From: a virus
DNA length: 64,000 bases
Direction: 5' to 3' (one strand)
Virus record (IMG/VR): IMGVR_UViG_3300031787_000065
Location: 15,387-79,386 of that record
In this document: positions 13,884 to 63,932 of the stretch, piece by piece
How the letters are laid out: the number at the start of each line of letters is the position of its first letter
How positions within the stretch are numbered: the stretch's first letter is position 1
The notes under the pieces: model-generated
What the model saw: only the letters and a program-made list of their open reading frames with translations
Told to the model about the DNA's origin: nothing
Databases searched by the model: none
Translations under genes and position numbers: made by a program

Positions 13884-15728
13884 TTAATTCTCTAGTTCAT
13901 ATGTCCAACTTAAATTTAAGTTATAAGTTCCGTCCATAGGATTCCACGATTCTTGCGGAGGATTAACAAAATATTTTCTAATACCTAGTTCGTAGGCTGG
14001 GCTGATAGCTTTAATCATATTATTTATATGTGTTCTAGCTGGTTCCCACATGGTAGGTTTACTTAATACGTATTGATTTCTATATAAAAATTGTAATTGT
14101 GCTGGATGTAAAGTGGTTGTTGTTGTAGTCGTTGTGGAACCGTTTGCAGGCGCTGGCGTTGTTGTCGTAGTGCGTCCATACTGAGTGTCAAATACTAGCT
14201 CTATAGATACATCTCTTTTGTATTCTGTCCTAGTTCCTAAATATTGTAAAACTGGACCGTTTGACCTACCAATTACAGGTATTGTCGCAAAAACATCTCC
14301 TGGATATGTATCGTTGATGGATATGCTACTGGATTTTAATCCACCAACATTGTCTATCAACGGTCTATTATCAAAATCTATATTATAAGTAATTTCACCA
14401 GTAAATTCATTATGACCAATAGATATTGATTTTGGCGTTGGATTAATATCAAAGTTGACTAATTTTCTCGCTCTTTTGTATAAATCAGATGTTATCCCAA
14501 ACGTTCCTTGGTTGCTAATAAGGTTATATTTATTAATTGCATTTTGATATGGTGTAACATGAACAGTAGACCTATAATCTCCACCATAAATGTATCCGCT
14601 TGGCGGCATACTAGATAAGCCCTTAACTGTACCGTTGACAGATATGGTAGTTAAAGTATCTTCTGCCGAGGAACCGATAGAAGATGAATAGTTTTCATAA
14701 GCCGTTCCGCTAGATAGCAACCAAGTATCAACGATGTTATAGCTACCAGTAGACACATCGAAGCTTTCGCTTCTAGAATGATTAAAACCACCATACATTT
14801 GTGCTGATAAATATATAAATCCACTACCAAAATAATGACCAGCCGTCCAGCTTTGAGATGGCAAATCGGAATGTTGACGAGTTATTCCATTGTCATCATG
14901 CAAATATCCATTATAATTATGGCTATATTTATCTAAATATTTTTTAAGAAAACCCCTAGCTTGAGCAAAAGCTTCTCCACCTTGATTTGGCGCAAGGCAA
15001 TCAGAGATACGTTTACCAGTAGCAGATAAATTTCTAGTTAATCTATATGTTCTAGTTACAGCGTCGTTTGGCGCGGAGTTTCCACCATTGCTATAAGGTG
15101 GAGTAATACCATTTCCATCTTGTGGCTCTAAAGACCAATTCTCAGAAAAATCAGAAACAATACCTCCATATTTATTTATATAATCTGGTATAGATACACC
15201 GCTTGTATCTTCTATATTAATATTAATAATTCCTTGACCATAGCTATTCATAGCTATAATCTTATCTTCCTTATTGAGCAAGAAATCAGTTTCTAACGTA
15301 ATCGAATACCTACATGTGTCTACCCATACCCCTTCTTCAAAAGATATAGACGTTAGCTTTGGATAAAATTGAATTACCGGCTCATTTCCATCAATAGAAG
15401 AAACTTCTACCCTGTTGCAACTGTCTGCAAACAAGCTTCTTAAAGCTACTTGTTTTGATAAAATGCTACCAAGGCGACCACTTGCTGGAATAGTCTGGCT
15501 ACTTGGTCTAGGATCATACTGGTTAGCAAACGAAGATGGTGAACTAGATAGGGTAGGACTATTAGTATATGGAGAACCCTCATCGGCTATAATGGAGCCA
15601 TTAAGAGTAATAGTATAAGATCCACCAGCATTTCCAGTGGCAGTATTAGTAGAATTCCAATCTATATTCATTAATGGGCATGGCCTAATCACTTTAGCTG
15701 TGCCAGCTTTATCATATACTATAATCAT
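13884..15728 (-). CDS. Tail (distal-tail-like) structural protein
   Basis: Beta-rich repeated segments ending in YNLNLSWTYE; post-TMP position. Confidence 0.5.
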   Translation of the reverse strand: MIIVYDKAGTAKVIRPCPLMNIDWNSTNTATGNAGGSYTITLNGSIIADEGSPYTNSPTLSSSPSSFANQYDPRPSSQTIPASGRLGSILSKQVALRSLFADSCNRVEVSSIDGNEPVIQFYPKLTSISFEEGVWVDTCRYSITLETDFLLNKEDKIIAMNSYGQGIININIEDTSGVSIPDYINKYGGIVSDFSENWSLEPQDGNGITPPYSNGGNSAPNDAVTRTYRLTRNLSATGKRISDCLAPNQGGEAFAQARGFLKKYLDKYSHNYNGYLHDDNGITRQHSDLPSQSWTAGHYFGSGFIYLSAQMYGGFNHSRSESFDVSTGSYNIVDTWLLSSGTAYENYSSSIGSSAEDTLTTISVNGTVKGLSSMPPSGYIYGGDYRSTVHVTPYQNAINKYNLISNQGTFGITSDLYKRARKLVNFDINPTPKSISIGHNEFTGEITYNIDFDNRPLIDNVGGLKSSSISINDTYPGDVFATIPVIGRSNGPVLQYLGTRTEYKRDVSIELVFDTQYGRTTTTTPAPANGSTTTTTTTTLHPAQLQFLYRNQYVLSKPTMWEPARTHINNMIKAISPAYELGIRKYFVNPPQESWNPMDGTYNLNLSWTYELEN

Positions 15729-27033: not shown

Positions 27034-30000
27034 TTACTTACCAAGAACTGTTTGTGATTTCACAATGTTACCACCGGGACCAACTCTATAATTTCCTAAT
27101 TCTTTAGCTAGTTGATCAAAGAGTTCTTTCTGTATTTGATCTTTAAGCGTAGACAAGAATGAAGCTCCTTGGAAGTTAACATTAATATTAGCTGTCTCTA
27201 GTTTAATCTGGAATTTAGTATTTTGTAAGTTTGTAATATTAGCAGATAGATCTTTATTAAATGTATTTAATGCACTAGCAAGATTGCTGACCACCTGTGG
27301 ATCAAGATTCACTGGTTGCATTCCGGTTAACATGGACATTAACTTGCCAACAAGTCCACCATCTGATAGATACTGTGTTCCACCGCGAATCTTGCCGCCA
27401 CGATTAGCATATGCGGTGCCGCTACCAGAAACATGATTTCCACTATTTATAGCTTTTAGTAGTTGTAGATTATTCTGCGTAGCCCTTCTATTTACAACAA
27501 ACTCTCCAGGAGTTAACATTGCTGGAACAGTATCTGTTCCGCGTGGAACAAACATGCCTCTACTAGCATAAACCATTCCTCCGCGAGCAAATCCAGATGC
27601 GGCCTCATTTCCGCGTTGTATAATTTCTTCTAGCTTAATATTAGCTTGAGATACAATAATCTCGGCTGTATTTAACTCCATTTGTGCCATATCTATGCCA
27701 ACCTGTCCAGTTTCACTTAAAACTCCACCAAGTTCTCGTATTCTTGCTCTCTTTCCTTCTTCTTCCGGTGTTGTTCCAGCTAGAGACTGAGCGGCGAATG
27801 GGCTTTGAATTCCTCTCGCAGCTAAAGCAGATTGAGCAGCCATTTCTCCAAGACCACCAGCGCCAGATAATTGTACTCCATATAGAGACTGAACACCAGC
27901 CTCCATTTGTCTTTGAATATCTTGGAAAGCTGACGCTAAAGCAGAGGCTCCAAATTGATTGATTAAACTTTCATTTCCAGTTGCAATAGCAGCCGTAGCA
28001 CCAACTGCTGCTTGTTGTTCAAAGAACTTTTCTATATCGCCAGAAATCAACGATTCCATTGACTGCTTTTCTAATTTATTCTTTTCTTGAATAATCTTAA
28101 GCTCATCTTGTTCTAGCTTAATTAATGATCTGATAGTATCTATTTGTGTTCTATAAGCTTTTTGTAAATCTCTTTGTTGTTCAGAAGCTTCAACGCCAGA
28201 AGCTCCTTGCAATCCGCCCTCTGTTCTTGCTCTTTCCTCATAAGTAGCTGCGCCAGCCCTGAGTTCTATATTTCTGCGTCTAAGTTCTTCTGCGCTACCA
28301 CTTCTGAAACCACTTAGACCTAGACGGTCGCCCTCAACATTAGCTTTTCCAAGAATGACCCCTCTTCTTTCCGCTCCGGTAACGGCCATGCCGCCAGCAC
28401 CAGCTTGTACTTCTCGTCCCTCTAGGTATAAATCTAATGCTTCTTGTTGTGCTTCAACTAACTTTCTTTCTGCTTCTATTCTCTTTTGAGTTAATTGAAT
28501 AATTACCTGTTCGGCCTTTTGTCTTTCTTGAGCAATTTTAATTATGCTTTCAATTTGTTTTTGTTGAGCTTCTCCTAATTTATTGCCAAATACTTCATAA
28601 TTTCCACCGATTATTTGATCAATTTCGTCATCTGTAAGATTAATACCCTCTATAGCTTTCTTAAGATTTTCCTTTGCTGGACCACCAACTAGATTAGAAA
28701 GTTCTGTAGCTAGCTCCTTTCTAAAATCTTCAGCATTTAATCCTTTAAAAGCTTTGTCTCCTATTCTTTGTCTAACATTTTCAAATGCTTGAGAATATTT
28801 TTGCTGAGCAGCAACGAAAGCGTTGGTATTATTTTCAAACTTAGACACAAACGCTGGAGAAACTCCTAATTTTTCTAAATTTTGCGCAACATTAGATACT
28901 GCATTTTTAATGTCTGTAGGATCCATAGCTTGAGCGGCACTGCTAACAGCTTCTCTTAAAAACTCTGCGTCGGAAACAAACGCTGAAGAACCAGCCTCAA
29001 AACTAGAAGCAAACCTCGCCATGCTCGCTGACATAGCTGTGGATGTTGCTTCCGCTCCACGTAAACCTAAATTCATTGCCTCAAATGATGCTTTAGCTCT
29101 AGCAACTTCTTTTTCAAGATTAAGTAATTCAGAGTTAATTTGATCTACTTGTCCCTTAAGTTGAATAAATGCTTCTTGCGCTGCTGCTGCACCCTCAGCG
29201 TCACCAGCCTTAGCTAAATTAGTTGCTTTGTCACTTAAATCTCGTAATCTTTGTAATTTATCATCTCTAGTACCAATTCCTAGGGCTTCTCTTCTCACCC
29301 GTTCTGGATCTTGACCTCTCGCCAAACCAGAACGTATAGCTGCTTGTCTGGCTGGAGACTGTAATTCAAAAGCTCTAGCTTGACCCTCATTGCTCTTTCT
29401 AATCATCTCTGCGCTTTGTTCACCAAGTTTATCGTCTCTTTCTTGTGCAGAATCAACATACCCAAAAGTGGCTGTAGCTCTAACGTCTCGGAAATATCCT
29501 CCCCAAGTTCTATTTCCATTTTTATCATATTGCCTATTTTCTGTATTAGATTGAGCAAAGTCTAAAGCTCTATTTTGTTGTATTGTGGCGGATTCAGTAG
29601 AGGTTCTAATTCTAGCTAATGCTTCTGATGCGGTTATAGTTCCTCTCTCAAAATCCTGCATCGCCGTGGTTGCTGTTTTTTGAGCTTGATCAAGAGATTT
29701 CTGCGTACTTATTGCTCCAGCTTGCGCAGCCGCCAAGTCAACAGCACTTTTTGTTGTTGTTTCAAAATTTGATGCTACTCCAACTAAGCCAGTACCCAAA
29801 CCAACTAAAGCTCCCACAGCGGTGCCAACGACAGGAATAAAACTTCCAATTGCAGCGCCAGCAGCAGTAGCTGCTACTACTCCACCAGCAGACCCCGCTC
29901 CGCGCTGAAAATTACTTTTTTCTAAAGCTACAGACTTAGCTTCTTCAACATTGCCGGATTTTATTGCTTTATTAAGTCTTCCTTCAAAATTATAAATACT

Positions 30001-33000
30001 TTCGGCTATAGCATTAAAGGCGGCTTGTGCTAGTGCCGCTCCACCAACAACTGCAAGCAAGGGGCCAGCGAGCTTTGCAAGCCCATTAGCTGTACCAGTT
30101 AATAATCCAGCTAAATCTTTACTGCCACCAACTCCTCTGACAGTATTGAAAACAGCTTGTTTTCCACCATTTCCAATTCCTCCACCGCTAAAGAAGTTCA
30201 TTAAGGCTTGTTTTTTCATGCTAACACCAAAGGCTTCTAGCGCAGTCATTGTCGCAAAAACAGTTGTTACACAACCAAGCAAAGAATGGCTTAATTTTGT
30301 CAGAGCGCCACTGCTTTCATCAACTGCTGGTAAAAATCCTTGAAGCAAGCTTGTTGCCATAGATGCAGCAAACATTTTATTATCTGATATCATCCCTCCC
30401 GATCCACGACTATTATTTACGCCAGCCGATCCGCCCACGCCGCCGCCAGTTCCGCCAGATCTAGCACCAACCGTTCCACCCACTGTAGACCACGGATTAG
30501 ACGGTCCAGTGGGGCTAGTTGGTGCAGTAGCTGGTCTACTACTTGTAGATGTTTTTGAAGAAGATGCAGAAGAATTTTTTGCTTTAGTATCATTATCAAG
30601 AGCTTTAATATAACGAGCCATAGCAGCTTGAATTTCTGCGTCTGACTTTCCTTGTCTTTGTAAAGAGCTAATATATTCAGAATATTTTAGAGCTATTTTT
30701 TCTTGAGCAGTTTGCGTTCTATTGTTTGCTATAGCATTAGCTCTAACAGAATCTACAAGAGCGGGAACAACCGTTTGTATGTTGGCAAATGCTAACCTTG
30801 TTTTAGCGGTTTCTGACCCAAGACCTCTTATTAGATCTGATACTGAAAATACTGTTTTTTCTAAAATACCAAAAATTCTAGGATTGATACCAAACGCTTG
30901 AGATCCAACGCGATCAAAAGATGGTTTTACTCCAGTTCCGGCAGTACCCGTGGCAAATCTTTGAACAACTCCACCCTTTGCATATCTACCAACCTTATTC
31001 ATACGATTTAACGCACCGTACCCAATATTCTGCGCAGATGCACGATTAATAACAAATTCACCAGGAGTTAGTAGTGCTGGAACAGTATCTGTACCAACGC
31101 CGCCACCAGTGGCAAAGCCTCGCCTTCTCTGTCTTGCGGCTAAGAAGCCCTTTTGCCTTTCGCTGCCACCCTCATACTCTCTAGTCGCTAAACCCTGCTT
31201 TTGCCTAAAAGTTTCTATGCGGTCTTGCTTTTCAAGTTTTGCCGCCATAGTTTTTTGATAAAGAGCAGAGTCTGGTGGTCTATATGAAAGTAAACCAAAC
31301 TGTTTTTCAAGATCATAATATTCTAACGCTAAGCTCTCAGCGCCAGTTCTGGGATTTATTTTTCTTTCTTGCATTAACTCCTTTAACTTGTCTAAAGTTA
31401 TGCCCTTACGCTTTGCGGCAGCTTTCATATCATCTATGCTATATCGCAAAGACCCAACAGTAAATAGTTCTGGTCCACCAACTTCGCCACCGGTTGCAAA
31501 TTTTTGTATTAAACCACCAAAATGTTTCTTTTGAATTTTTATGCCAGATAATACGCCATTATTAATAGAATTAATTATTTTACTAGAAATGCTACCGCTT
31601 CCAGCATCTCCATCTATGATTTTACTAGAATAAGACGCCTTTGCATCAGCTTGTTTTAGTTTAGAAATGCCGGTTTCATTTCCAAATAAAGCTGCTAATC
31701 TTTTTCTACTACCCTGTAAAGATGAGGATGGGAAATCAAAAACGGCATTGCCAGAAGCAGGCTTTGCGCCAGTTAAAGCGTCTATAACTCCTTCGTATAG
31801 ATATCCAGACGTTGTTCTAATAGCTCCAGCGTCAGATTGAATACGCTTGGCGGCAGACGAAAGCAAAGCATCATTACTGTCAATAGGTGGAATATCTAAT
31901 AACTTTTTAGAAGATACCTCGTTAGCAACAGACATTACTGCTTCTGATAATTTATTTTTTACATTGCTTTGAATAATTTGACTCAAAGATCCAGACTGTA
32001 TATCGCCAATAGAAGGATAAAATGTCTGTATTTGTCCAGCTTGAAGAATACCCTTGGCAGAAAATGTGTCTGGCTTGCCAGCCATTTTATCGCCCTTATT
32101 TTTATAAGGATTTACTCCATTTAATGACAATAATTTAGGATTTGTTATATCAAATGTTTTTTGTTTAAATGGTTTTAATCCGTCTGGAGTTCCTTCTTTG
32201 TTCATAAAGAAAGCTCCAATATTTCCGGGATCTACTGAAAACATTAATTCATCTTTATCTCTTCCAGATGTAAATTTCTTTTTCTTAGTTTGGCTTTCTG
32301 TTTTTTGTATTTTCTGTGCGCCTCTAGCTCTTGCCAATTTTTGAGCCATAGTCATTGGCCCGCCGTCTTCATATCTATTCTCATTCATCGCCGCCAAATT
32401 AGCAGCACCCAACTTTTGAACACTACTCTTTCGTATAACGAATTCTCCAGGACTTAACATGGCAGGAACAGTATCTCTATTACCAGTTCCGGGAACCATG
32501 CCACCCCTAGCAAAATGGTGAACTTTGCCACCCTTGTTGAAGGTTCTAGCGGAAGCTAAACCTCCACCAATCCCGCCAAGAAAAGAACCAAGACCTCTAG
32601 CTATTCTAATAGCAGCTAAAGCTCCTAATAATGGAAGTAGTGGCTTAATAGAATCAGCGAGCTTGATTAAAGATGTGGCTAAAGATAGGGCGGTATTAGC
32701 CATAATCTGGAATGTGGCGGTTTCTGTAATGCTACGAACTAACGCAAGAAATTCTTCTTTAACCTTAGTTATTCTAATGGCTAAAGCTTGTTGCGCAGTG
32801 GCAGCGTCTTGAGCTAAACTGTTTCCAGATTTTTGTGCAACATTAAGCGCGGATTGTGCTACTGAAAATTGTTGTAGTAATGGTAATACTTTACCAATCT
32901 GTCGGAACCCACCAAGTTCTTCTGCTACTCTAATAAATGTTAAATCACCCTCGCCAAGACCGGCTAATGCGCCACTCAATCTTTTCACAGCTTCAAATGG

Positions 33001-33885
33001 GCCAACGAACTTGCCTTCTAAGTCTACAAGCTCAACACCAAACTGTTTTAAGAATTCAATAGTTTGTGGTCGCTGAATACGTGTGAAAATAGTACGCAAG
33101 CCAGTACCAATACTTTCAGCACTTTCTCGCGTCGTTGCTCTTACTGAAGTAAATAATGCTAGTAATTCATTTAGATCTCCACCAGATGCCTTAAACACAC
33201 CGCCCGTTCTACGAATAACGTCAATTAAGTCTCCAGCTTCTACTGCGAACGCGCCAGCAACAGCATTAATAGACCCAAGCTGCTTTTCTAATGATCCAAC
33301 TCCCTCTTGGAACTGTGCTAGAATGGCAATAGCGCCTTCCGCCGTTTCAGTAATACTATCAAAGTTAGGAGCTAAAGCTGCCCTTGCCAATGATTTAAGT
33401 GCTACTTCAGTATCTTTAGAATTTAAACCAGCCTGTAATAGGATGGTAGACACTTCTAATAATGACTGAGAAGATACACCAAGGCCGGTTGATAAGTCAG
33501 TAATAGTACTAGTTAATTTACTAAGCTTACTGAGACTTTCGCCAGTAACCTGAGAAATTTTAACTAATTGTCTTTCAAAATCAATAGCTGTTTGTACAGC
33601 GTCACCAAGAGTGCTGGTAAATAAACCAACAGCCCTTGTGGCAATAGAGAAAGCTGCAAAACGACGAACAGATACAGCAAATGCTCGTCCCATCCTTTCC
33701 GCCGCAGTTGTGGCGTTATTGGTGTTCTGAGTTATTTGCTGTATTTGTCTTTGAGCTTGCTGCGCGCCTTGAACCTGTACATTAACGGTGACGTTATTTA
33801 ACTGGCTCTGTATTTGGCGAACAACTTGTGCTACATTATTGGGTGCTTGTAATTGTAATTGTGCGGTCAGTACAAATCTGGACAT
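27034..33885 (-). CDS. Tape measure protein
   Basis: 2283 aa, Ala/Gln-rich and helical; TP901-type N-terminal core (FERQLVKISQVTG..IGTGLRTIFTRI); hydrophobic Gly/Ala segments; follows the tail tube and chaperones. Confidence 0.9.
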   Translation of the reverse strand: MSRFVLTAQLQLQAPNNVAQVVRQIQSQLNNVTVNVQVQGAQQAQRQIQQITQNTNNATTAAERMGRAFAVSVRRFAAFSIATRAVGLFTSTLGDAVQTAIDFERQLVKISQVTGESLSKLSKLTSTITDLSTGLGVSSQSLLEVSTILLQAGLNSKDTEVALKSLARAALAPNFDSITETAEGAIAILAQFQEGVGSLEKQLGSINAVAGAFAVEAGDLIDVIRRTGGVFKASGGDLNELLALFTSVRATTRESAESIGTGLRTIFTRIQRPQTIEFLKQFGVELVDLEGKFVGPFEAVKRLSGALAGLGEGDLTFIRVAEELGGFRQIGKVLPLLQQFSVAQSALNVAQKSGNSLAQDAATAQQALAIRITKVKEEFLALVRSITETATFQIMANTALSLATSLIKLADSIKPLLPLLGALAAIRIARGLGSFLGGIGGGLASARTFNKGGKVHHFARGGMVPGTGNRDTVPAMLSPGEFVIRKSSVQKLGAANLAAMNENRYEDGGPMTMAQKLARARGAQKIQKTESQTKKKKFTSGRDKDELMFSVDPGNIGAFFMNKEGTPDGLKPFKQKTFDITNPKLLSLNGVNPYKNKGDKMAGKPDTFSAKGILQAGQIQTFYPSIGDIQSGSLSQIIQSNVKNKLSEAVMSVANEVSSKKLLDIPPIDSNDALLSSAAKRIQSDAGAIRTTSGYLYEGVIDALTGAKPASGNAVFDFPSSSLQGSRKRLAALFGNETGISKLKQADAKASYSSKIIDGDAGSGSISSKIINSINNGVLSGIKIQKKHFGGLIQKFATGGEVGGPELFTVGSLRYSIDDMKAAAKRKGITLDKLKELMQERKINPRTGAESLALEYYDLEKQFGLLSYRPPDSALYQKTMAAKLEKQDRIETFRQKQGLATREYEGGSERQKGFLAARQRRRGFATGGGVGTDTVPALLTPGEFVINRASAQNIGYGALNRMNKVGRYAKGGVVQRFATGTAGTGVKPSFDRVGSQAFGINPRIFGILEKTVFSVSDLIRGLGSETAKTRLAFANIQTVVPALVDSVRANAIANNRTQTAQEKIALKYSEYISSLQRQGKSDAEIQAAMARYIKALDNDTKAKNSSASSSKTSTSSRPATAPTSPTGPSNPWSTVGGTVGARSGGTGGGVGGSAGVNNSRGSGGMISDNKMFAASMATSLLQGFLPAVDESSGALTKLSHSLLGCVTTVFATMTALEAFGVSMKKQALMNFFSGGGIGNGGKQAVFNTVRGVGGSKDLAGLLTGTANGLAKLAGPLLAVVGGAALAQAAFNAIAESIYNFEGRLNKAIKSGNVEEAKSVALEKSNFQRGAGSAGGVVAATAAGAAIGSFIPVVGTAVGALVGLGTGLVGVASNFETTTKSAVDLAAAQAGAISTQKSLDQAQKTATTAMQDFERGTITASEALARIRTSTESATIQQNRALDFAQSNTENRQYDKNGNRTWGGYFRDVRATATFGYVDSAQERDDKLGEQSAEMIRKSNEGQARAFELQSPARQAAIRSGLARGQDPERVRREALGIGTRDDKLQRLRDLSDKATNLAKAGDAEGAAAAQEAFIQLKGQVDQINSELLNLEKEVARAKASFEAMNLGLRGAEATSTAMSASMARFASSFEAGSSAFVSDAEFLREAVSSAAQAMDPTDIKNAVSNVAQNLEKLGVSPAFVSKFENNTNAFVAAQQKYSQAFENVRQRIGDKAFKGLNAEDFRKELATELSNLVGGPAKENLKKAIEGINLTDDEIDQIIGGNYEVFGNKLGEAQQKQIESIIKIAQERQKAEQVIIQLTQKRIEAERKLVEAQQEALDLYLEGREVQAGAGGMAVTGAERRGVILGKANVEGDRLGLSGFRSGSAEELRRRNIELRAGAATYEERARTEGGLQGASGVEASEQQRDLQKAYRTQIDTIRSLIKLEQDELKIIQEKNKLEKQSMESLISGDIEKFFEQQAAVGATAAIATGNESLINQFGASALASAFQDIQRQMEAGVQSLYGVQLSGAGGLGEMAAQSALAARGIQSPFAAQSLAGTTPEEEGKRARIRELGGVLSETGQVGIDMAQMELNTAEIIVSQANIKLEEIIQRGNEAASGFARGGMVYASRGMFVPRGTDTVPAMLTPGEFVVNRRATQNNLQLLKAINSGNHVSGSGTAYANRGGKIRGGTQYLSDGGLVGKLMSMLTGMQPVNLDPQVVSNLASALNTFNKDLSANITNLQNTKFQIKLETANINVNFQGASFLSTLKDQIQKELFDQLAKELGNYRVGPGGNIVKSQTVLGK

Positions 33886-47494: not shown

Positions 47495-48502
47495 TTAGAA
47501 AGAACCTAGAATTACTCTTCGGTTATCAAGAACACCGAAACCAAGTTCTGACCAACCGTAGTAGCCAGCGCGCTGCTGACGGTGTAGGGTTGGATCTTCG
47601 AATACTTGGAGTTGCTCCTTAACGGGCATTACGAAACTATCACTGGTTGACTGGTCAAGACCAACAACGAGTTCTAGATCGCTAGACTGTAGAGCGCCAC
47701 CGAGATCCGATGTTACGAAGTTCTGATATTCCTGACCTTCGCCTAGTTCGTCAAGATCATGAAGATTGACGCCGAAGATTCTTGTGATTACAGCGCTACC
47801 TGGAGCAGCGGTGTAAATTTCTCTTCGTGTTACTTCATCAACTTGGTCTAGACCCCAGTTACGAACATCTTCTAGAGCTTCTGGACTAACGTAGAGGTCA
47901 GTTAAACGACCACGGCCCACAGAAGCACTATTACCACCAGAGTTACGACGCATTACGGTCTGCATAAGAGAAACTAGTCTCTTGCTGAAAAGACCGGCTG
48001 TAGCATCAGCGTCATAAACGAGGATGTTACGATCAACGCCAGCAGCTAGAAGTGTGTGCCAGCCATCATCGTTCATCTTCTTTGTAAAACCGGCTTCCAT
48101 GACCTGCATGGCGCGACCAACGATATCCCATCTGGCTTCGCGAGCATAGCGAAGTAGATAGTCTACAGAAGATGTGATGCTATATGTTGGGATCATCACA
48201 TAATCGCTCTCAACAGATCTTTCTGGAATTCTACCGTGGCCAGGATTGGTGTAAGCGACATGCTCACCCTCAAGGCCGGGAGAAACTAGATCAAGAGGAT
48301 ACTCTGTTGTAGAACCGGCTTCAACATTAATGGTTTCGAAAATGTTACCAAGAATGTTACCAACGAGAACGCCCTTACGAAGGGGTAGTTCTAGAGCCTT
48401 GGCAAACTCATGCTGAGCAGCCGCAGCAACATTCACATCGGCATCCCCTGACTTACGTAGGAGAGCGATAAACTCATCGCTAGGTCTTTTATTAATTGGC
48501 AT
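47495..48502 (-). CDS. Major capsid protein (HK97 fold)
   Basis: 335 aa; order portal-protease-decoration-MCP; strong AAGGAG SD; followed by a terminator. Confidence 0.85.
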   Translation of the reverse strand: MPINKRPSDEFIALLRKSGDADVNVAAAAQHEFAKALELPLRKGVLVGNILGNIFETINVEAGSTTEYPLDLVSPGLEGEHVAYTNPGHGRIPERSVESDYVMIPTYSITSSVDYLLRYAREARWDIVGRAMQVMEAGFTKKMNDDGWHTLLAAGVDRNILVYDADATAGLFSKRLVSLMQTVMRRNSGGNSASVGRGRLTDLYVSPEALEDVRNWGLDQVDEVTRREIYTAAPGSAVITRIFGVNLHDLDELGEGQEYQNFVTSDLGGALQSSDLELVVGLDQSTSDSFVMPVKEQLQVFEDPTLHRQQRAGYYGWSELGFGVLDNRRVILGSF

Positions 48503-52652: not shown

Positions 52653-54638
52653 TTAATACACATCTTTCATTTGTTCTACAAACCAGCTTGGTCCAGTATA
52701 GAGTTTTTCAGAAGGATTTTTCTGAGCATGTCCACCGGTAGCAAAACCTCCATAAAACTGATATGCTTCTTGGGTTGGTGTGCGCTGTAGAACTCTAGCC
52801 GCCATATTTGCCATCAATAAAGCAGAATATCTATCTTTTCTCATTTTGCTCTTTTTGCCAGTACCAACTATAACTTCTGGCGTGTCCCACCTGTCTCTTC
52901 CGCTATTAGTTTGAGTCATCTGAATCATAGATAACTCATCTTTTAATTCTTCTATTTCTAGAACGCATTCTTCTAGCGTGTCAAACATTCTATTTTTTAT
53001 AGAGTCTTCAGCGTTAGATAGGCTTAATGATATTGTATCAAAATATGGGAACAATAACACCTTGTCTTCAAAATCTTTCCTCATTCCGTGATTAGCTTCT
53101 GCCAGCCAATCGTGTCTAGCGAACTGGCAGGGTTCTATAATGTGTAAACCTCGCTCTCCATCAGTATCTTTTGGTTTATCATCTTCTATAACTGGCCAGA
53201 TTGGTAGCTCTCCCTCTCTGATCTTGTCTTGATCGTGTAGAGACTCTATAACAGCTATGCCACCACCTTGAGCGTCTATTGAAATATGAATACATGGATA
53301 CAGAACCATCAAATCTCTTATTTTTCTAGCGCAATAAGAATAAAAATCTGTTTCGTTTGAGTAACCCTTTTTAACAAGTTCTTTATGTTCTGATCTTGTT
53401 GTTGTCCAGCAGTGAACAATTCTTCTATGATCTGAATTAACTTCTAGTACAATTATGCTAAAATTGTCTACTTCTGAGGCTGGGTCAACTCCAAAGATAT
53501 ATCTTTTATTTGGATCTCCCATTAAAGAAGCCTCAAAGTGTATATCATTTCCCTTAGTATCTTTAATTGAAGAGTCTTTTGTTATCACGCAAGATTCTAT
53601 AAGCGATCTCTTAAAAAAGCCTTGAGAATCTCTTGTGAAACAAGCTCCATATTCCATTTGGTAAATACCCGCATGAACGGTGGCCTTAGATCTGGCAACT
53701 TGGTCTGCGTCCATGAATCCGGGTGGAAGTAATTCATATGGCATTCTTATAATAGAATATTGTCTCCAATCAAAATTCTCGGGCGGATCTTCTCCGTTAA
53801 AAACATCTCTTAATTTAGACTGAACTCCTCTACTCTTTATAATAGACTGCCACTTTTTCCAGTATGTAGCAAAGTGATTAAAGTCATAATAAGCAGTTCC
53901 AGACAAGATAATCTGATTATCCTTTTGGTCTTTTGGGGTTTCTTCTGCTATAATTTCTACTCCCAGCTCTTTAGCTTTACTTTGTGCTGCTAATCTTTTT
54001 ACATTTTCAACCGGATCAGCACTGACCGCAGCGAAGCCAGCTACAACGTTCTCAAAAATATCTCTAGGAATAGATGCGAATTCGTCAGCAATAATATCGT
54101 TGGCTCTTTGACCTCTAATTTTCTGACCATCACCAAGTGGTAAACATGTAATTATGCTATCATTAATACGCATAACACATCTATCAGTATCTCTACGGGG
54201 ACCACTATCTGCATCACACATATCTCTTAACATTGGAGAATTTCTCCAAATTGTTTCCATATATTCAAAAACTACCTTAGACTGCCTAAACGCTGCGCCA
54301 ACAATAACAATTTTTCTACGAGGAAGCATTAATGCTCTAAGCATAGAATATACAGACAATTTGAATGATTTACCAAATCCTCGACTAGCAATAAGCATTG
54401 GAAATTTTCTTTCCCATAGCTCTTTTATAATTAAGCTCTGGGACGGAAGCAATTGTATATTTAGAATATGGTTAGCAAAAAAAGAAAGGTAGTCTGGCCT
54501 ACTCATTAACCAAGAAAGCTTAAGATGAAAGTCATCATCGGAAGACTTTAATATAGACATTGGATTAAATAGGTCTGTCTCTATTGTCTCTAGACCTAAC
54601 CAAGCCTCGTCTATAATCTTTAGCTTAGATTTACTCAT
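52653..54638 (-). CDS. terL: Terminase large subunit
   Basis: Walker A ASRGFGKS, RGQRA, Walker B IIADEF, LSGT, RNase H-like FGVDPA and KDRYSA. Confidence 0.92.
   Translation of the reverse strand: MSKSKLKIIDEAWLGLETIETDLFNPMSILKSSDDDFHLKLSWLMSRPDYLSFFANHILNIQLLPSQSLIIKELWERKFPMLIASRGFGKSFKLSVYSMLRALMLPRRKIVIVGAAFRQSKVVFEYMETIWRNSPMLRDMCDADSGPRRDTDRCVMRINDSIITCLPLGDGQKIRGQRANDIIADEFASIPRDIFENVVAGFAAVSADPVENVKRLAAQSKAKELGVEIIAEETPKDQKDNQIILSGTAYYDFNHFATYWKKWQSIIKSRGVQSKLRDVFNGEDPPENFDWRQYSIIRMPYELLPPGFMDADQVARSKATVHAGIYQMEYGACFTRDSQGFFKRSLIESCVITKDSSIKDTKGNDIHFEASLMGDPNKRYIFGVDPASEVDNFSIIVLEVNSDHRRIVHCWTTTRSEHKELVKKGYSNETDFYSYCARKIRDLMVLYPCIHISIDAQGGGIAVIESLHDQDKIREGELPIWPVIEDDKPKDTDGERGLHIIEPCQFARHDWLAEANHGMRKDFEDKVLLFPYFDTISLSLSNAEDSIKNRMFDTLEECVLEIEELKDELSMIQMTQTNSGRDRWDTPEVIVGTGKKSKMRKDRYSALLMANMAARVLQRTPTQEAYQFYGGFATGGHAQKNPSEKLYTGPSWFVEQMKDVY
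52655..52662 (-). promoter_or_regulatory. Putative late promoter TGTGTATT overlapping the TerL stop
   Basis: 40 bp upstream of the portal ATG. Confidence 0.5.
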
Positions 54639-59618: not shown

Positions 59619-60806
59619 ATGAGCAAGGATGCTAAATTACATATTGAAAATCTAGAGAATAGGCTTGCACTAACTGGTGCCATTGTGGCTTTTGTTGATT
59701 CTGGCATAGATCTTAATCATAAAGACTTATCAGAGAATATATGGACAAATCCTAGTGAAAAAGTAGACGGAATTGATAACGACAATAACGGGTACATTGA
59801 CGATATTAATGGGTGGGATTTTGCAAATAACGACAATATTCCACAGGACGATTTTTATCACGGAACGCACATTGCGGGAATAGTTGATTCTGTTAGTAAA
59901 AATACTGTCACATTAATGCCCCTTAAGTTCCAAAACTATCAAGGATTGGGATATACGGGGGCGGCGGCGACAGCTATTAACTATGCTACTAAGATGAAAC
60001 TGCGTGGACATAATATAGCGGCTATTAATTTAAGCTGGGGAGGCGGAACTTCATCGTCTCTAGCACTGTATAATGCTATAAAAAATGCTAGTGATGCTGG
60101 AATAGTTGTGGTTATAGCTGCTGGGAACAACTCATCTGATAATGATCTACTGCCACGATATCCTTCGTCATATAAGTTCAACAATACTATTAGTGTGGCT
60201 GGACTCAACTCTAATATGACTCTAGCCGGATATTCTAATTATGGAAAAAATAGTGTTGAGATTGGGGCGATTGGAACGGCGTATTCAACACTTCCTGGAA
60301 ATAATTACGGAACAATTAGTGGAACTAGTATGGCGGCTCCAAATGTGAGCGCAGCAGTAGCAATGCTGAAGAACGTTAATGTTAATTATGGGGCAAATCA
60401 GATTAAGTGGGCAATATTGTCTACGGCTAAGATGGTAGCTGGATTGGTGGATAGAGTAACCTATGGATACTTGGATATTCAAGGGGCTATGGGGCTAAAT
60501 ATGGTTCCAAAGCCAGATATCATACCAATTCAGCCACCACAGCCAATAGTAGTTCCAATAGTTGAGAGCCATGCGCACGTAGTTTCAGTAAACAAACATT
60601 ACGTTAAAACGCAGACTCAAGACGGGGCTGGTAGATTAACAATTAAAATAAACAATAGGGTCAGATATGAGTCTGATGTGTCGGGGTATTCAAGTGTAGC
60701 GATAAAGAGGTGGATGACTAAGCGGTACAATAATGTTACCGTAGTTTTCAAGAGTAATCTGGGCAAAGAGTCAATAATTTATCAAGGGTCTTTGAGGGCA
60801 AGATAA
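59619..60806 (+). CDS. Subtilisin-like S8 protease with planctomycete-type LExRxLL leader
   Basis: VDSG (Asp), HGTHIAG (His), AAGN, GTSMAAP (Ser); DGIDNDNNGYIDD Ca-loop; leader LHIENLENRLAL; AGGAGG SD before ATG 59619. Confidence 0.9.
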   Translation: MSKDAKLHIENLENRLALTGAIVAFVDSGIDLNHKDLSENIWTNPSEKVDGIDNDNNGYIDDINGWDFANNDNIPQDDFYHGTHIAGIVDSVSKNTVTLMPLKFQNYQGLGYTGAAATAINYATKMKLRGHNIAAINLSWGGGTSSSLALYNAIKNASDAGIVVVIAAGNNSSDNDLLPRYPSSYKFNNTISVAGLNSNMTLAGYSNYGKNSVEIGAIGTAYSTLPGNNYGTISGTSMAAPNVSAAVAMLKNVNVNYGANQIKWAILSTAKMVAGLVDRVTYGYLDIQGAMGLNMVPKPDIIPIQPPQPIVVPIVESHAHVVSVNKHYVKTQTQDGAGRLTIKINNRVRYESDVSGYSSVAIKRWMTKRYNNVTVVFKSNLGKESIIYQGSLRAR

Positions 60807-60814
60807 GCAACAGC

Positions 60815-60822
60815 CGTGTATA
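60815..60822 (+). promoter_or_regulatory. Putative late promoter CGTGTATA
   Basis: 40 bp upstream of ATG 60862; also contains TATAAT. Confidence 0.5.
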
Positions 60823-60861
60823 ATAGAGGGGTAGTTTTACAATTCAATATGAGGCTGTGTA

Positions 60862-61848
60862 ATGTCAAGACCAAAAGGGTCAAAAGACTCAAAAAAAAGA
60901 AGAACTAGAAATCAATATGGATTTAGCAAGCAAGATATAGATACGATAAACAAACTAAAAAATCAACATAAAACCAATAAGGATATAGAGAGAGTTACTG
61001 GTTTTAGTAAATCTCAAATTAACAAGATATGCAAAGAGAACAATATTAAGCAAATAGATAATAAAATAATATCAGAAAAAGAAGAATTAATATTAGATGA
61101 AAGTAAAGAAGAAATATGCGGAATTTATATTATTCAATTATTTAGAAAAGATGGATATCAAGGATATTATATTGGTAGCTCAACAAATATAAGAAAAAGA
61201 TGCGTGTCACATCAAAGATTGTTACAAATTAACAACCATTATAATGCTAGGCTGCAAGAGGATTTTAATAATAAAAAGTCTATCAAATATAAAATATGGT
61301 CTATAGAACCAGAATCTGATTTATTAAAAATAGAAAATAATCTTATAAGTCAATATGCGGGACTATATAACACTTGGAGCGCTGTAAATGCTGGTGATAT
61401 TAAAGAATATATAGATTTAGCTATCGAGAAAATAAATGCAAGATATACAGTAGATGTAAATGATGGATGTTGGCTTTATAAATACAAAAGAAAAGATGGA
61501 TACGGTAGGGATATAGGAATTAATATTGATGGTAGAAAAAAATATCTAAAGCCACATCGCGTATCTTACTATGCGCATTATCAAGATTATCCAGAATTAA
61601 TTAGGCATAAATGTAATAATAAGCTTTGCATAAATCCAGAACATTTAGAACCTGGAAGCTATAGAGATAATGGGTTAGATAAGACTCTGTCAAAGTGGCA
61701 AGAGTTTAAAGACAAGTGGAAAGAATACAATGGAGACTATACTAGGATCACAGAGTATTTTGGATACAAAAAGAATTACAAATCATCAAGTGGACAAGAA
61801 TATTATTGTCATATCAAAGCAATCGCTAAAAAGCTTGGGTTGGTTTAA
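60862..61848 (+). CDS. Putative homing endonuclease: HTH + GIY-YIG + HNH (Zn-loop) fusion
   Basis: CGIYII..YYIGSS..R..H and E/N residues; GCW..HRVSY..RHKCNNKLCINPEHL..N; N-terminal RPKGSK and HTH. Confidence 0.8.
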   Translation: MSRPKGSKDSKKRRTRNQYGFSKQDIDTINKLKNQHKTNKDIERVTGFSKSQINKICKENNIKQIDNKIISEKEELILDESKEEICGIYIIQLFRKDGYQGYYIGSSTNIRKRCVSHQRLLQINNHYNARLQEDFNNKKSIKYKIWSIEPESDLLKIENNLISQYAGLYNTWSAVNAGDIKEYIDLAIEKINARYTVDVNDGCWLYKYKRKDGYGRDIGINIDGRKKYLKPHRVSYYAHYQDYPELIRHKCNNKLCINPEHLEPGSYRDNGLDKTLSKWQEFKDKWKEYNGDYTRITEYFGYKKNYKSSSGQEYYCHIKAIAKKLGLV

Positions 61849-62158
61849 TTAGATACTAAAGGATTGGATAATACATTTATATTTTTAATTGCCAATCGTG
61901 CTTTGGATACCCATCGATTTTTCCTATACTGTTTATCTTCACATTTATAAGATAAAACCCCCACCTTCTCTGTATTGCCTATCTTAACATTTTCTGTTCG
62001 TACCCCGCCCCGCGTGTCATAAGTCTATATATAGCAACCACTTACGACACATTCTCACCATACCGAGTGTCCATTCTATAGAGAAAAAATTCTTTTTGAC
62101 GTAACTCCTTATGGGATAATGACTTAGGGAAAATCCAAAATTATTCTAAAGAGAGGGC

Positions 62159-62187
62159 TTGACTTCTGCCGATGATATTGGTATAAT
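62159..62187 (+). promoter_or_regulatory. sigma70-type promoter
   Basis: TTGACT-17-TATAAT. Confidence 0.8.
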
Positions 62188-62223
62188 TAAGCATCAAAGG
62201 AAAAGAGAAGAAAGAGAAAGAAA

Positions 62224-62448
62224 ATGAAAAACGCTACTCACATCAACAGCTTCATCAACAGCCTTCCCAAGGTTGCTCAAAAGAAAGTGTGGAAGGTTAA
62301 GGATTCCAATGGTACGGTTGTTCAGTATGTAGGCTCTACCGATAATCGGAAAAGCACTGCTCAAGTGTACATCAACAACAAGTATCCCGGTCAGACCTTG
62401 ACCCTTACGTTTTCTCACTTCAACGGAATGATTGCTCTCCCCCGATAA
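62224..62448 (+). CDS. Small early hypothetical protein
   Basis: Downstream of a promoter, with purine-rich leader. Confidence 0.7.
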   Translation: MKNATHINSFINSLPKVAQKKVWKVKDSNGTVVQYVGSTDNRKSTAQVYINNKYPGQTLTLTFSHFNGMIALPR

Positions 62449-62454
62449 GAGGGG

Positions 62455-62482
62455 TTGACGGGCGGGAAAAGTTTGCTAGAAT
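62455..62482 (+). promoter_or_regulatory. sigma70-type promoter
   Basis: TTGACG-16-TAGAAT with extended -10 TG. Confidence 0.65.
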
Positions 62483-62508
62483 ATTGGTATAAGAAAGAGA
62501 GAAAGATT

Positions 62509-62721
62509 ATGAGCAAGAATGAAGTGATGATGATTGTGGAAAAGATTTTCGGTGATGATGCTAATCGTGTTCGCGTTAACATGAGTGGTGATTGCTACCG
62601 CATCGAATGGGAAGATGGTTGCCATTCGGTTAGGGTTAACGAAAAAAATGCGTTTGACAAGATTAACGATCTCTACTATGATGTTGCTTGTGAGAATGCT
62701 TCCGAGTTTGGTTGGTCGTGA
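62509..62721 (+). CDS. Small early hypothetical protein
   Basis: Start moved to ATG 62509 (MSKNEV) after the AAGAAAGAGA leader. Confidence 0.7.
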   Translation: MSKNEVMMIVEKIFGDDANRVRVNMSGDCYRIEWEDGCHSVRVNEKNAFDKINDLYYDVACENASEFGWS

Positions 62722-62736
62722 ATAAAGGGTAAGAAA

Positions 62737-62907
62737 ATGGTTTTCTATATGTATCGTGCTGTTGATGCTAAGCGTTTAGGCACAGTGTTTGCTAAAGATT
62801 GGGTTGACGCCCGTACACTAGCCACCGAAAAGTGGGGATATAAGTTTGGCGAGGTATTCGCCTGTACAGCCCCATTGCCAGAGGAAAATGGCTTAGTGAT
62901 TTGGTGA
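62737..62907 (+). CDS. Small early hypothetical protein (56 aa), absent from the ORF track
   Basis: MVFYMYRAVDAKRLGTVFAKDWVDARTLATEKWGYKFGEVFACTAPLPEENGLVIW; AAGGG SD-like sequence. Confidence 0.6.
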   Translation: MVFYMYRAVDAKRLGTVFAKDWVDARTLATEKWGYKFGEVFACTAPLPEENGLVIW

Positions 62908-63053
62908 ACGTAAACCCTTTCACCATAAGGACTTAGGGCAAATCGGCCCCGCCAAAATCCACGTAAGTATTTGTGGTATATAGACTTACGACGAATATGT
63001 TTTCTTTCTCCTTTGGCATAGAAATATATTTCTGATTTTCTTAAGAAAGCCTA

Positions 63054-63081
63054 TTGACGCAGCCGATAAATAGAGTATAAT
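63054..63081 (+). promoter_or_regulatory. sigma70-type promoter
   Basis: TTGACG-16-TATAAT. Confidence 0.75.
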
Positions 63082-63101
63082 TAAGGCATAAGAAAGAGAG
63101 A

Positions 63102-63272
63102 ATGAAAATGAAAAACCTGTCGCACCAAGAAATGATTGAAATGGCTATGGGATTCGGATACGATGGTGAGCCGATTGAGGCTGTGTATGATATGTGCGAT
63201 ATCTTCAAGGTTTCAGACGAGAAGAGAAAGCAACTTGTGGCTGCGTATGAGGAAGGGCATTTTGATTGGTAA
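63102..63272 (+). CDS. Small early acidic protein (56 aa), absent from the ORF track
   Basis: MKMKNLSHQEMIEMAMGFGYDGEPIEAVYDMCDIFKVSDEKRKQLVAAYEEGHFDW, after a promoter and AAGAAAGAGA leader. Confidence 0.65.
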   Translation: MKMKNLSHQEMIEMAMGFGYDGEPIEAVYDMCDIFKVSDEKRKQLVAAYEEGHFDW

Positions 63273-63287
63273 AACATTTGTTCAGTA

Positions 63288-63316
63288 TTGACAGATTAAA
63301 AGCCGATCTATAGAAT
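63288..63316 (+). promoter_or_regulatory. sigma70-type promoter
   Basis: TTGACA-17-TAGAAT. Confidence 0.75.
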
Positions 63317-63334
63317 ACAGCCAAAGGAAAACAA

Positions 63335-63484
63335 ATGACCATTCAAGTTCAAAATACCGTTCGTCGCCTTGTTGCTCGTCATGGATATTCGGCAACATTT
63401 GTTCAGCATATGGGCGAAGGAATTAGCCTTTACAGCGTTGGCGGAATCATGTATCGTATTCGTGGTGATGGCACGATTCTCTAA
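63335..63484 (+). CDS. Small early protein (49 aa), absent from the ORF track
   Basis: MTIQVQNTVRRLVARHGYSATFVQHMGEGISLYSVGGIMYRIRGDGTIL; AAAGGA SD. Confidence 0.65.
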   Translation: MTIQVQNTVRRLVARHGYSATFVQHMGEGISLYSVGGIMYRIRGDGTIL

Positions 63485-63507
63485 TTCTCTAGAATAAGGA
63501 ATAAGGT

Positions 63508-63702
63508 ATGCAGATGAATAGCCTTGACAAAATTCTTTCCGCCATGCGTACAGGTAAGTATGGTAGCGTTGTTGACACTAAGGGTAGTGTACATGTGGGC
63601 ATCATCAACTCTATCATGCGTGAGGATGGTAGCGGTAGGAACTGGATCGTATCAGTGACCAACCGTACAGTAAGCGAACAGGTTTTTATCCACGCGACGT
63701 AA
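63508..63702 (+). CDS. Small early hypothetical protein (beta-rich)
   Basis: AAGGA SD; the stop codon lies inside the palindromic box at 63698. Confidence 0.7.
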   Translation: MQMNSLDKILSAMRTGKYGSVVDTKGSVHVGIINSIMREDGSGRNWIVSVTNRTVSEQVFIHAT

Positions 63703-63784
63703 GTTGTTGTGGGATAAAGACTTAGAGCAAATCGGGCGGGCCATTTTTGACGTAAACCCTTGCTGCGTATAGACTTACGGCGAG

Positions 63785-63859
63785 TGTTGCAAAATGCGGA
63801 GCAAAATGCTACACAGTGTAGCAAAATGCAACAGTCATTCTGACAGTGCCAATCTGGCA
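63785..63859. promoter_or_regulatory. Cluster of five CA-N3-TG palindromes (candidate activator-binding sites)
   Basis: GCAAAATGC three times (including TGTAGCAAAATGCAACA), GTCATTCTGAC and TGCCAATCTGGCA. Confidence 0.55.
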
Positions 63860-63915
63860 TAGATCGTAAGTCGAATAGAATCAACCACTTAGGACAACAA
63901 AAAATATTTCTGACT

Positions 63916-63932
63916 TTGGCACGGAGAGTGCA
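63916..63932 (+). promoter_or_regulatory. sigma54 (-24/-12)-type promoter
   Basis: TTGGCACG-GAGA-GTGCA; GG-N10-GC spacing; one mismatch to TGGCACG-N4-TTGC. Confidence 0.6.

Follow-up and report, generated by a model that had tools for sequence, protein, structure and literature searches.

TF1 of Bacillus phage SPO1 is a phage-encoded protein of the HU family whose preferred sites lie among clustered early promoters, so that a type II DNA-bending protein acts on a dense early-promoter cluster in the host-takeover region, and it needs hydroxymethyluracil DNA. In Escherichia coli, the RIP/RIB elements are reportedly repetitive BIMEs that bind integration host factor (IHF) and are located at the 3' ends of transcription units. 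The promoter-early stem-loop (PeSL) cassettes of the T4-type phages RB49/phi1, PST, and nt-1 are repeated composites between small variable early open reading frames (ORFs), in which an upstream dyad, a terminator stem-loop, is followed by a near-consensus sigma70 promoter, and close relatives are mosaic in gene content (PMC2839356, PMC4122927). Lastly, IHF sites, including lambda H' and H1 (consensus WATCAANNNNTTR), carry WATCAR between two kinks 9 bp apart, where prolines intercalate at A-A steps, and a flanking TTR (10.1101/382655, PMC1874591). The element considered here is a 29-bp palindromic box that occurs seven times in the window, i.e. the 64,000 nucleotides from position 15,387 to 79,386 of the IMG/VR virus record IMGVR_UViG_3300031787_000065. 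With moderate confidence, and from the features of the DNA, the boxes are proposed to bind a DNA-bending protein of the IHF/HU type, most likely the IHF of the host or a close analogue.

The seven boxes follow the pattern CGTAAGT-N15-ACTTACG and span 62018-63893, all within the last 2 kb of the window. Each lies exactly where the first-pass annotation had placed it, and the remark that the preceding 62 kb are free of boxes is confirmed; within the contig, the 15 kb that precede the window are likewise free of boxes at two mismatches or fewer. When up to three mismatches are allowed in the 14 arm positions, the seven matches compare with 1.81 expected, and none of 100 shuffles reaches seven, so the motif is commoner in the window than in shuffled sequence. 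The description as an 11-7-11 palindrome was right about the dyad but overstated its extent: symmetry is limited to the outer 7 bp and to TT (10-11)/AA (19-20), and positions 8-9 are not complementary to positions 21-22, in the window and in the family alike. The boxes and linkers are as follows; ORFs C and F belong to a series of small early ORFs located further below.

62018..62046, no strand: box 1, CATAAGT...ACTTACG
62100..62128, no strand: box 2, 82 bp after box 1
62909..62937, no strand: box 3, first of pair 1, starting 1 nucleotide after the stop of ORF C
62938..62961, no strand: linker of pair 1, 24 bp, G+C-rich, GCAAATCGGCCCCGCCAAAATCCA
62962..62990, no strand: box 4, arms matching perfectly, 53 bp after box 3
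63698..63726, no strand: box 5, first of pair 2, in which TAA at 63700-63702 is the stop codon of ORF F
63727..63750, no strand: linker of pair 2, 24 bp, G+C-rich, GCAAATCGGGCGGGCCATTTTTGA
63751..63779, no strand: box 6, 53 bp after box 5
63865..63893, no strand: box 7, right half AATCAACCACTTA, a perfect WATCAANNNNTTR

The exact box pattern recurs in at least 120 IMG/VR viral contigs of uncultured freshwater and marine phages, most of which carry several boxes at a spacing of ~0.5-1.5 kb, and 221 oriented copies, out of 467 unique boxes, yield the consensus CGTAAGTccTTg.....cAAcGACTTACG. Relatives of the window's terminase number more than 596 in IMG/VR at ~75-96% identity, near-identical DNA is found in lake and freshwater metagenomes from 16 studies, and the box-bearing records fall into three tiers of terminase identity to the window, namely 72-96%, 52-58% (including CheckV-complete records of 186-238 kb), and 26-32% (including complete records of 147-170 kb). 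The box is retained in lineages with terminases merely 23-30% identical. Cultured relatives give no DNA match, and the best terminase match among them, to Bacillus Basilisk-like phages, is 26% identical. Placement is intergenic, always among the small early genes: only 7 of 60 boxes lie inside mechanically called ORFs of at least 80 amino acids, which make up 83-96% of these genomes, so that the motif, for which the first-pass annotation had envisaged a comparison with coding regions, is rare there. Moreover, within the early block, boxes occur in the first 9-20 kb only. Specifically, the 230.7-kb relative G005, which has direct terminal repeats, carries 25 boxes (up to three mismatches) at 161.3-180.6 kb, right after the leftward late block, and 18 of the 19 boxes of G004 lie at 85-93 kb. 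The contig that contains the window (G000) and the relatives G001 and G002 all end in or beside the box region (boxes at 132432 of 132557 in G001 and at 134144 of 135790 in G002), and lake-metagenome assemblies also fragment there; evidently, repeats and population variation break assemblies at this region.

Within the box, conservation amounts to 81% at T10, 94% at T11, 96% at A19, and 86% at A20, which gives two A-A (T-T) steps 9 bp apart, and TTA is found four bases past A20, with its mirror image on the opposite side. These elements match those of IHF sites (10.1101/382655, PMC1874591), with which the box shares the distance between the A-A steps, the TTR four bases beyond, a TATCAA-type centre, and the size of a footprint (~29-35 bp). 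When the half-sites, 960 in all, are read in the IHF register, the hexamer found most often at positions 15-20 is TATCAA. A perfect WATCAANNNNTTR is present in 105 of 480 unique boxes (22%), and 231 of the 480 are within one mismatch of it, the consensus being that of E. coli IHF. In the window, box 7 matches perfectly, box 1 has one mismatch in its right half (TAGCAACCACTTA), and boxes 2-6 have two to four, while several boxes of the G004 lineage hold the full IHF consensus on both strands. The box can thus be read as an IHF site made two-fold symmetric.

Palindromes in such places could also act as hairpins of RNA or single-stranded DNA, whether terminators, sites for RNase III or for stabilisation, or N4-type hairpin promoters. 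The boxes do stand where terminators are expected, right after stop codons (the upstream stop ends within ±5 nucleotides of the pair start in 39 of 123 pairs with 53-bp spacing), the operon ends are without a canonical intrinsic terminator, and the boxes of the G004 lineage resemble 13-bp stems with 3-nucleotide loops. However, the variable positions do not covary: in the 123 aligned 53-bp pairs, Watson-Crick pairing at positions 8/22, 9/21, 12/18, 13/17, and 14/16 does not exceed that of column shuffles, only 2/28 shows a small pairing excess, and the commonest combinations are C-C at 9/21 and G-G at 8/22. No column pair of the 162-column alignment has a mutual information above 0.27, and neither pairing between boxes (box 3 with box 4) nor pairing within the linker is supported by covariation. 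The seven boxes taken singly fold at 0 to -5.6 kcal/mol (z -1.4 to +0.6), no better than shuffles; the operon ends on the + strand show no U-tract, and Rfam holds no match for the boxes. Phasing with the -35 hexamer at the B-form repeat, described below, would also be unexpected for an RNA element. The box behaves like a double-stranded DNA site and not like a hairpin, and the hairpin explanation is very unlikely. The contigs of one lake metatranscriptome cover an endonuclease gene next to the early region and ORFs A, B, and G and not the boxes, contigs being unable to reveal RNA ends and their gaps proving nothing.

The same observations define the relationship to PeSL cassettes. The near-consensus sigma70 early promoter flanking variable ORFans is present, since promoters P1 and P3 of the window follow boxes, whereas the terminator stem-loop upstream of the promoter is absent, as the lack of covariation, the weak folds, and the missing U-tract indicate. 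Unlike the PeSL dyad, the box is free of pairing constraint, conserved in sequence across distant lineages, doubled, and phased with promoters, and its clade consists of other phages, long-tailed and of 130-240 kb.

Boxes are commonly paired. A start-to-start spacing of 53 bp is found in 123 of ~235 close pairs, the others being 50, 52, 42, or 48 bp apart in separate lineages. In the window, the boxes of both pairs (3/4 and 5/6) start exactly 53 bp apart, and the pairs have the linker motif GCAAATCGG.C..GCCA in common, as first noticed; the pairs do begin at or just after the stop of a gene block (box 3 begins 1 nucleotide past the TGA of the ORF at 62737-62907, and box 5 includes the TAA of the ORF at 63508-63702), and a promoter does lie downstream of every box group. 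In the family, a sigma70- or sigma54-type motif is found within ~100 bp downstream of up to 60 of the 123 pairs and, in the same direction, upstream of only 3-4. RIP/RIB elements are likewise said to recur outside genes, at the ends of transcription units, and to carry an IHF consensus; a RIP, however, reportedly consists of one IHF site between two REP hairpins, whereas here two IHF-like sites flank a G+C-rich linker, REP hairpins are absent, and the setting is a phage.

Near-perfect sigma70 promoters head each early unit of the window, at 62159, 62455, 63054, and 63288, and the elements downstream of the boxes are the following.

62159..62187, + strand: P1, sigma70-type TTGACT-17-TATAAT with GCCGAT in the spacer, upstream of ORF A (62224-62448)
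62455..62482, + strand: P2, TTGACG-16-TAGAAT, without an upstream box, for ORFs B (62509-62721) and C (62737-62907)
63054..63081, + strand: P3, TTGACG-16-TATAAT, spacer GCCGATAA, for ORF D (63102-63272)
63288..63316, + strand: P4, TTGACA-17-TAGAAT, without an upstream box, for ORFs E (63335-63484) and F (63508-63702)
63780..63864, no strand: repeat stretch, GCAAAATGC occurring three times alongside the dyad GCTACAC/GTGTAGC, kept in the relatives L107 and L177
63917..63938, + strand: sigma54-type -24/-12 motif, TGGCAC-GGAGA-GTGCA directly followed by TATATA, preceding an ORF that starts at ~63967

Measured from the box centre, -35 hexamers accumulate at 43-44, 54-55, 63-65, 73-74, and 82-84 bp, with a period of ~10.3 bp (best 10.1-10.5 in a scan of 6-16 bp; Rayleigh p ~5e-6 over 90 sequence clusters), and none of 1000 jittered sets reaches the observed value; in the window, the centre of box 2 is 45 bp from the -35 hexamer of P1. 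An initial peak at 35 bp was removed as an artefact, since TTGA joined to the CG of a pair's second box mimics a -35 hexamer. The half-site that fits the IHF consensus better faces the promoter in 79 cases, against 38 with the opposite orientation. A bend-dependent upstream element is predicted to show periodicity at the B-DNA repeat, which would be unexpected of an RNA signal or a crossover site; known IHF sites are likewise placed at ~-55 to -110 from start sites and on one face of the helix. A contig of an RNA library starts at 62196, just past P1, which is a weak hint only. A GCCGATA(A/C) motif within the -35/-10 spacer is common to early sigma70 promoters of the window (62165-62181, 63060-63075, 63294-63310) and of many relatives, which suggests a common promoter module or a second factor. 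In the G004 lineage, phased A-tracts (AAAAAAACTTT repeats; L221:5159-5203) lie between box pair and promoter, and only 5-8 nucleotides separate the -10 hexamer from the start codons after it, so that the mRNAs of this lineage look leaderless.

Sigma54-type motifs (TGGCAY-N5-TTGCW) are six-fold enriched in box loci (137 vs ~23 expected), and about two dozen of them are located 30-70 bp downstream of a box centre, which puts the box at ~-55 to -90. This is the classical place of IHF at sigma54 promoters. IHF sites lie there between the enhancer and the promoter, and the boxes are similarly found upstream of -24/-12 promoters. In the window, box 7, whose centre is 38 bp from the TGGCAC, is followed by TGGCACGGAGAGTGCA (63917-63932), a motif with homologous sites in L107 and L177, and the repeat stretch at 63780-63864 is in the enhancer position and could be an enhancer. 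The sigma54-type motifs are often followed directly by TATATA, or flanked by an inverted copy, GCAA-N5-GTGCCA, 3-4 bp away (the window, L107, L177, L085, and L123). Pairs of palindromes that share a helix face and precede -24/-12 motifs are a typical feature of enhancers, and box pairs might therefore be upstream activating sequences for a sigma54 enhancer-binding protein instead of IHF sites. There is very little probability in this alternative: sigma70-type promoters follow more of the 123 pairs (47) than sigma54-type motifs do (13), the centre of the proximal box ~55-90 bp before the start site is the usual position of IHF and not of an enhancer, to which an AAA+ enhancer-binding protein binds ~100-200 bp upstream of a -24/-12 promoter, and the enhancer position of the window is filled by the separate repeat block. 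In addition, neither RpoN nor a sigma54 activator was found in the clade phages, the PF00158 candidates being a RuvB-like and a Clp-like ATPase.

As for the binder, the first-pass annotation had suggested looking for an IHF/HU gene in the phage itself. None was found: PF00216 has no match above the cut-off in 14 clade records, a marginal match in G031 being a membrane-anchored ORF of 64 amino acids, and in this the clade differs from SPO1 with its own TF1. Clustering of ORFs over 73 box-rich loci yields no early-region protein family common to all three lineages, and the phage proteins are only 20-40% identical between lineages while the 29-bp site is almost unchanged. A host binder is favoured because the phages are without an HU/IHF gene and without a lineage-wide early protein family, because the site is unchanged despite the drift of the proteins, and because early promoters must fire before phage proteins exist. 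The same facts bear on a further explanation, by which the boxes are operators for a symmetric regulator, phage-made or delivered with the virion, that as a dimer or tetramer shuts off or coordinates the early units. Double-stranded symmetry, fixed length, and helical phasing suit any dimeric regulator, the strongly conserved outer CGTAAGT arms exceed the IHF consensus, and the boxes do not extend past the initial 9-20 kb of the early block though sigma70 promoters of G005 continue elsewhere, there without boxes, a restriction that would suit a dedicated regulator. Such a regulator is possible but doubtful, since the early region lacks a family common to the lineages, the site has not followed the divergence of the proteins, and activation of early promoters needs a factor present at injection.

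The sole highly conserved small basic domain, termed KPFR, was also considered as the binder and rejected, since it occurs in 3,636 protein clusters, in cultured phages without boxes, and in viruses of Pelagibacter, Roseobacter, and Nitrosopumilaceae likewise without them. This basic C-terminal domain of 80 amino acids (LNKPFR...FGDP...RRKSFRARH.C...YWSC; G000:C1:2837-3919, outside the window, L205:11548-12072, and L218:12620-12883) is the most conserved protein segment of the clade, 65-74% identical across phages with ~25% identical terminases. It is fused to varied N-termini, its Nitrosopumilaceae occurrences are in spindle viruses, and it matches no Pfam family and no PDB fold.

The other suggestion of the first-pass annotation, that the boxes are tyrosine-recombinase core sites that move early-gene cassettes in an integron-like way, fared worse. 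It would account for inverted arms around a short centre, for intergenic sites, and for gene content that varies among close relatives. Conversely, positions 13-17 have an entropy of 1.8-1.9 bits and the central 5-7 bp are near random, so that the boxes share no common overlap region and two of them rarely have the same one. The recombinase gene that would go with such sites is also missing, and breakpoints are found mainly at gene starts and stops: PF00589 is absent from 12 related records (G001, G002, G004, G005, G007, G009, G011, G021, G029, G031, G034, and G045; eight rated 100% complete by CheckV, the 50% fragment G000 not being included in this search), and of 93 ends of homology blocks, 28 coincide with gene starts, 24 with stops, and 10 with a box edge alone. 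This explanation is already largely refuted and retains next to no likelihood.

Gene swapping as such is evident in the early region, which is mosaic with respect to the closest relative, L125 (terminase 96% identical), where ORFs B and D are missing, F stands behind C and not E, and a 440-bp segment replaces F. Homology blocks between relatives are single genes. Boxes could then be homology patches for the swapping of early genes, comparable to PeSL shuffling and without a binding function of their own, and Logan contigs from lake metagenomes do break or join at box edges (62908/62939, 62961, and 63747-63782). Such contig breaks are expected of an assembly graph that contains a short shared repeat, and variants may be a cause as well. 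That boxes are patches of this kind is improbable, as only the 10 of 93 block ends just mentioned fall at a box edge alone, and a passive patch would not keep the half-site pattern, the 53-bp spacing, and the 10.3-bp phase across distant lineages.

The idea that the boxes may be bound by an IHF/HU-like bending protein gains, by comparison, from the anatomy, the 53-bp pairing, the ~10.3-bp periodicity, and the place upstream of sigma54-type promoters. Several points weigh against it. The WAT part of the IHF consensus is poorly matched in most boxes, among them boxes 2-6 of the window, and, as a main weakness, the most conserved positions (C1, G2, G6, T7, A23, C24, C28, and G29) lie outside the E. 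coli IHF consensus, the extra invariant bases CG...GT / AC...CG being foreign to IHF sites. The canonical IHF site is asymmetric, with an A-tract in some cases, whereas the box is two-fold symmetric and lacks an A-tract; the half opposite the consensus has a mirrored TAA-N4-TTR arm in its place, which gives the box a TTR-type arm on either side. Known IHF sites also differ from the boxes in arrangement, since the latter form arrays of 7 to 25 copies, most of them in 53-bp pairs around a G+C-rich linker. Kinship among the sequences inflates the statistics even after clustering, box 4 is 78 bp from P3 and thus off the main phase, and P2 and P4 of the window are without boxes, which are therefore not required by every early promoter. 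Finally, the metagenome bins with clade contigs (Silvanigrellaceae, SAR202, Rickettsiales, Flavobacteriales, and Gemmataceae) are taxonomically scattered and point to no host, so that IHF in the host is presumed.

Should the IHF/HU-type reading hold, a protein that recognizes the double-stranded, two-fold symmetric box, likely host IHF, would, by analogy with IHF, introduce kinks at T10-T11 and at A19-A20 and grip the TAA and TTA arms on either side. Boxes stand at the borders of early transcription units, where a stop codon immediately precedes them and the next promoter follows at a distance of one or several full helical turns. From there, the resulting U-turn would give the DNA upstream of sigma70-type early promoters its shape and, at sigma54-type promoters, would loop the DNA. 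In the 53-bp pairs, five turns long, a stiff G+C-rich linker would hold two bends on one face and form a compact cassette boundary. Conservation, symmetry without base pairing, IHF-like anatomy, phasing, and placement between genes are observed here, and the binder, the bending, and any influence on transcription are inferred from them. A more speculative extension, which is rather unlikely, is that this very abundant clade of aquatic phages may have evolved a symmetric "super-site" for the IHF-type protein of the host, phased pairs of which would be protein-built boundaries that stop read-through without an RNA terminator, insulate strong adjacent promoters, and set the upstream architecture of sigma70 and sigma54 promoters together.

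The window is the final 64 kb of a linear IMG/VR contig of 79,386 bp that is ~50% complete. A long leftward block of virion genes, including giant tail proteins, precedes a rightward block of very small ORFs that begins near 62.2 kb.

47495-48502, leftward virion block: major-head-protein candidate
52653-54638, leftward virion block: terminase

The tape-measure-like protein has 2283 amino acids here (27034-33885) and 5078 in G005 (C1:85360-100596), sizes that imply predicted tails of extreme length. A GIY-YIG + HNH homing-endonuclease gene at 60862-61848 (Pfam, PHROGs) is an insertion with a G+C content of 34%, compared with 42% in the early region; L125 has 68 bp where the window has 60796-61908. 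Among the early genes, ORFs A (74 amino acids, 62224-62448) and E (49 amino acids, 63335-63484) are the most widely retained, their DNA being 70-90% identical in many contigs and the ORF A protein 70% identical in the 230-kb relative G005. No Pfam or PHROGs match was found for ORFs A-F, and the ESM Atlas gave no usable match for ORF A.

If the proposal is true, hundreds of uncultured phages of 130-240 kb from lakes and oceans would rely on one architectural protein of the host for their first-expressed genes, and early gene control would gain a testable handle in phages without a cultured member. The combination of box, 53-bp pair, and ~10.3-bp phase would provide a signature for locating early regions and perhaps hosts. 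Moreover, the box would be a natural symmetric site of the IHF type, and its pairs would be an instance of U-turn sites that serve as cassette borders. A palindrome that separates early cassettes may thus be something other than a terminator or a recombination site.

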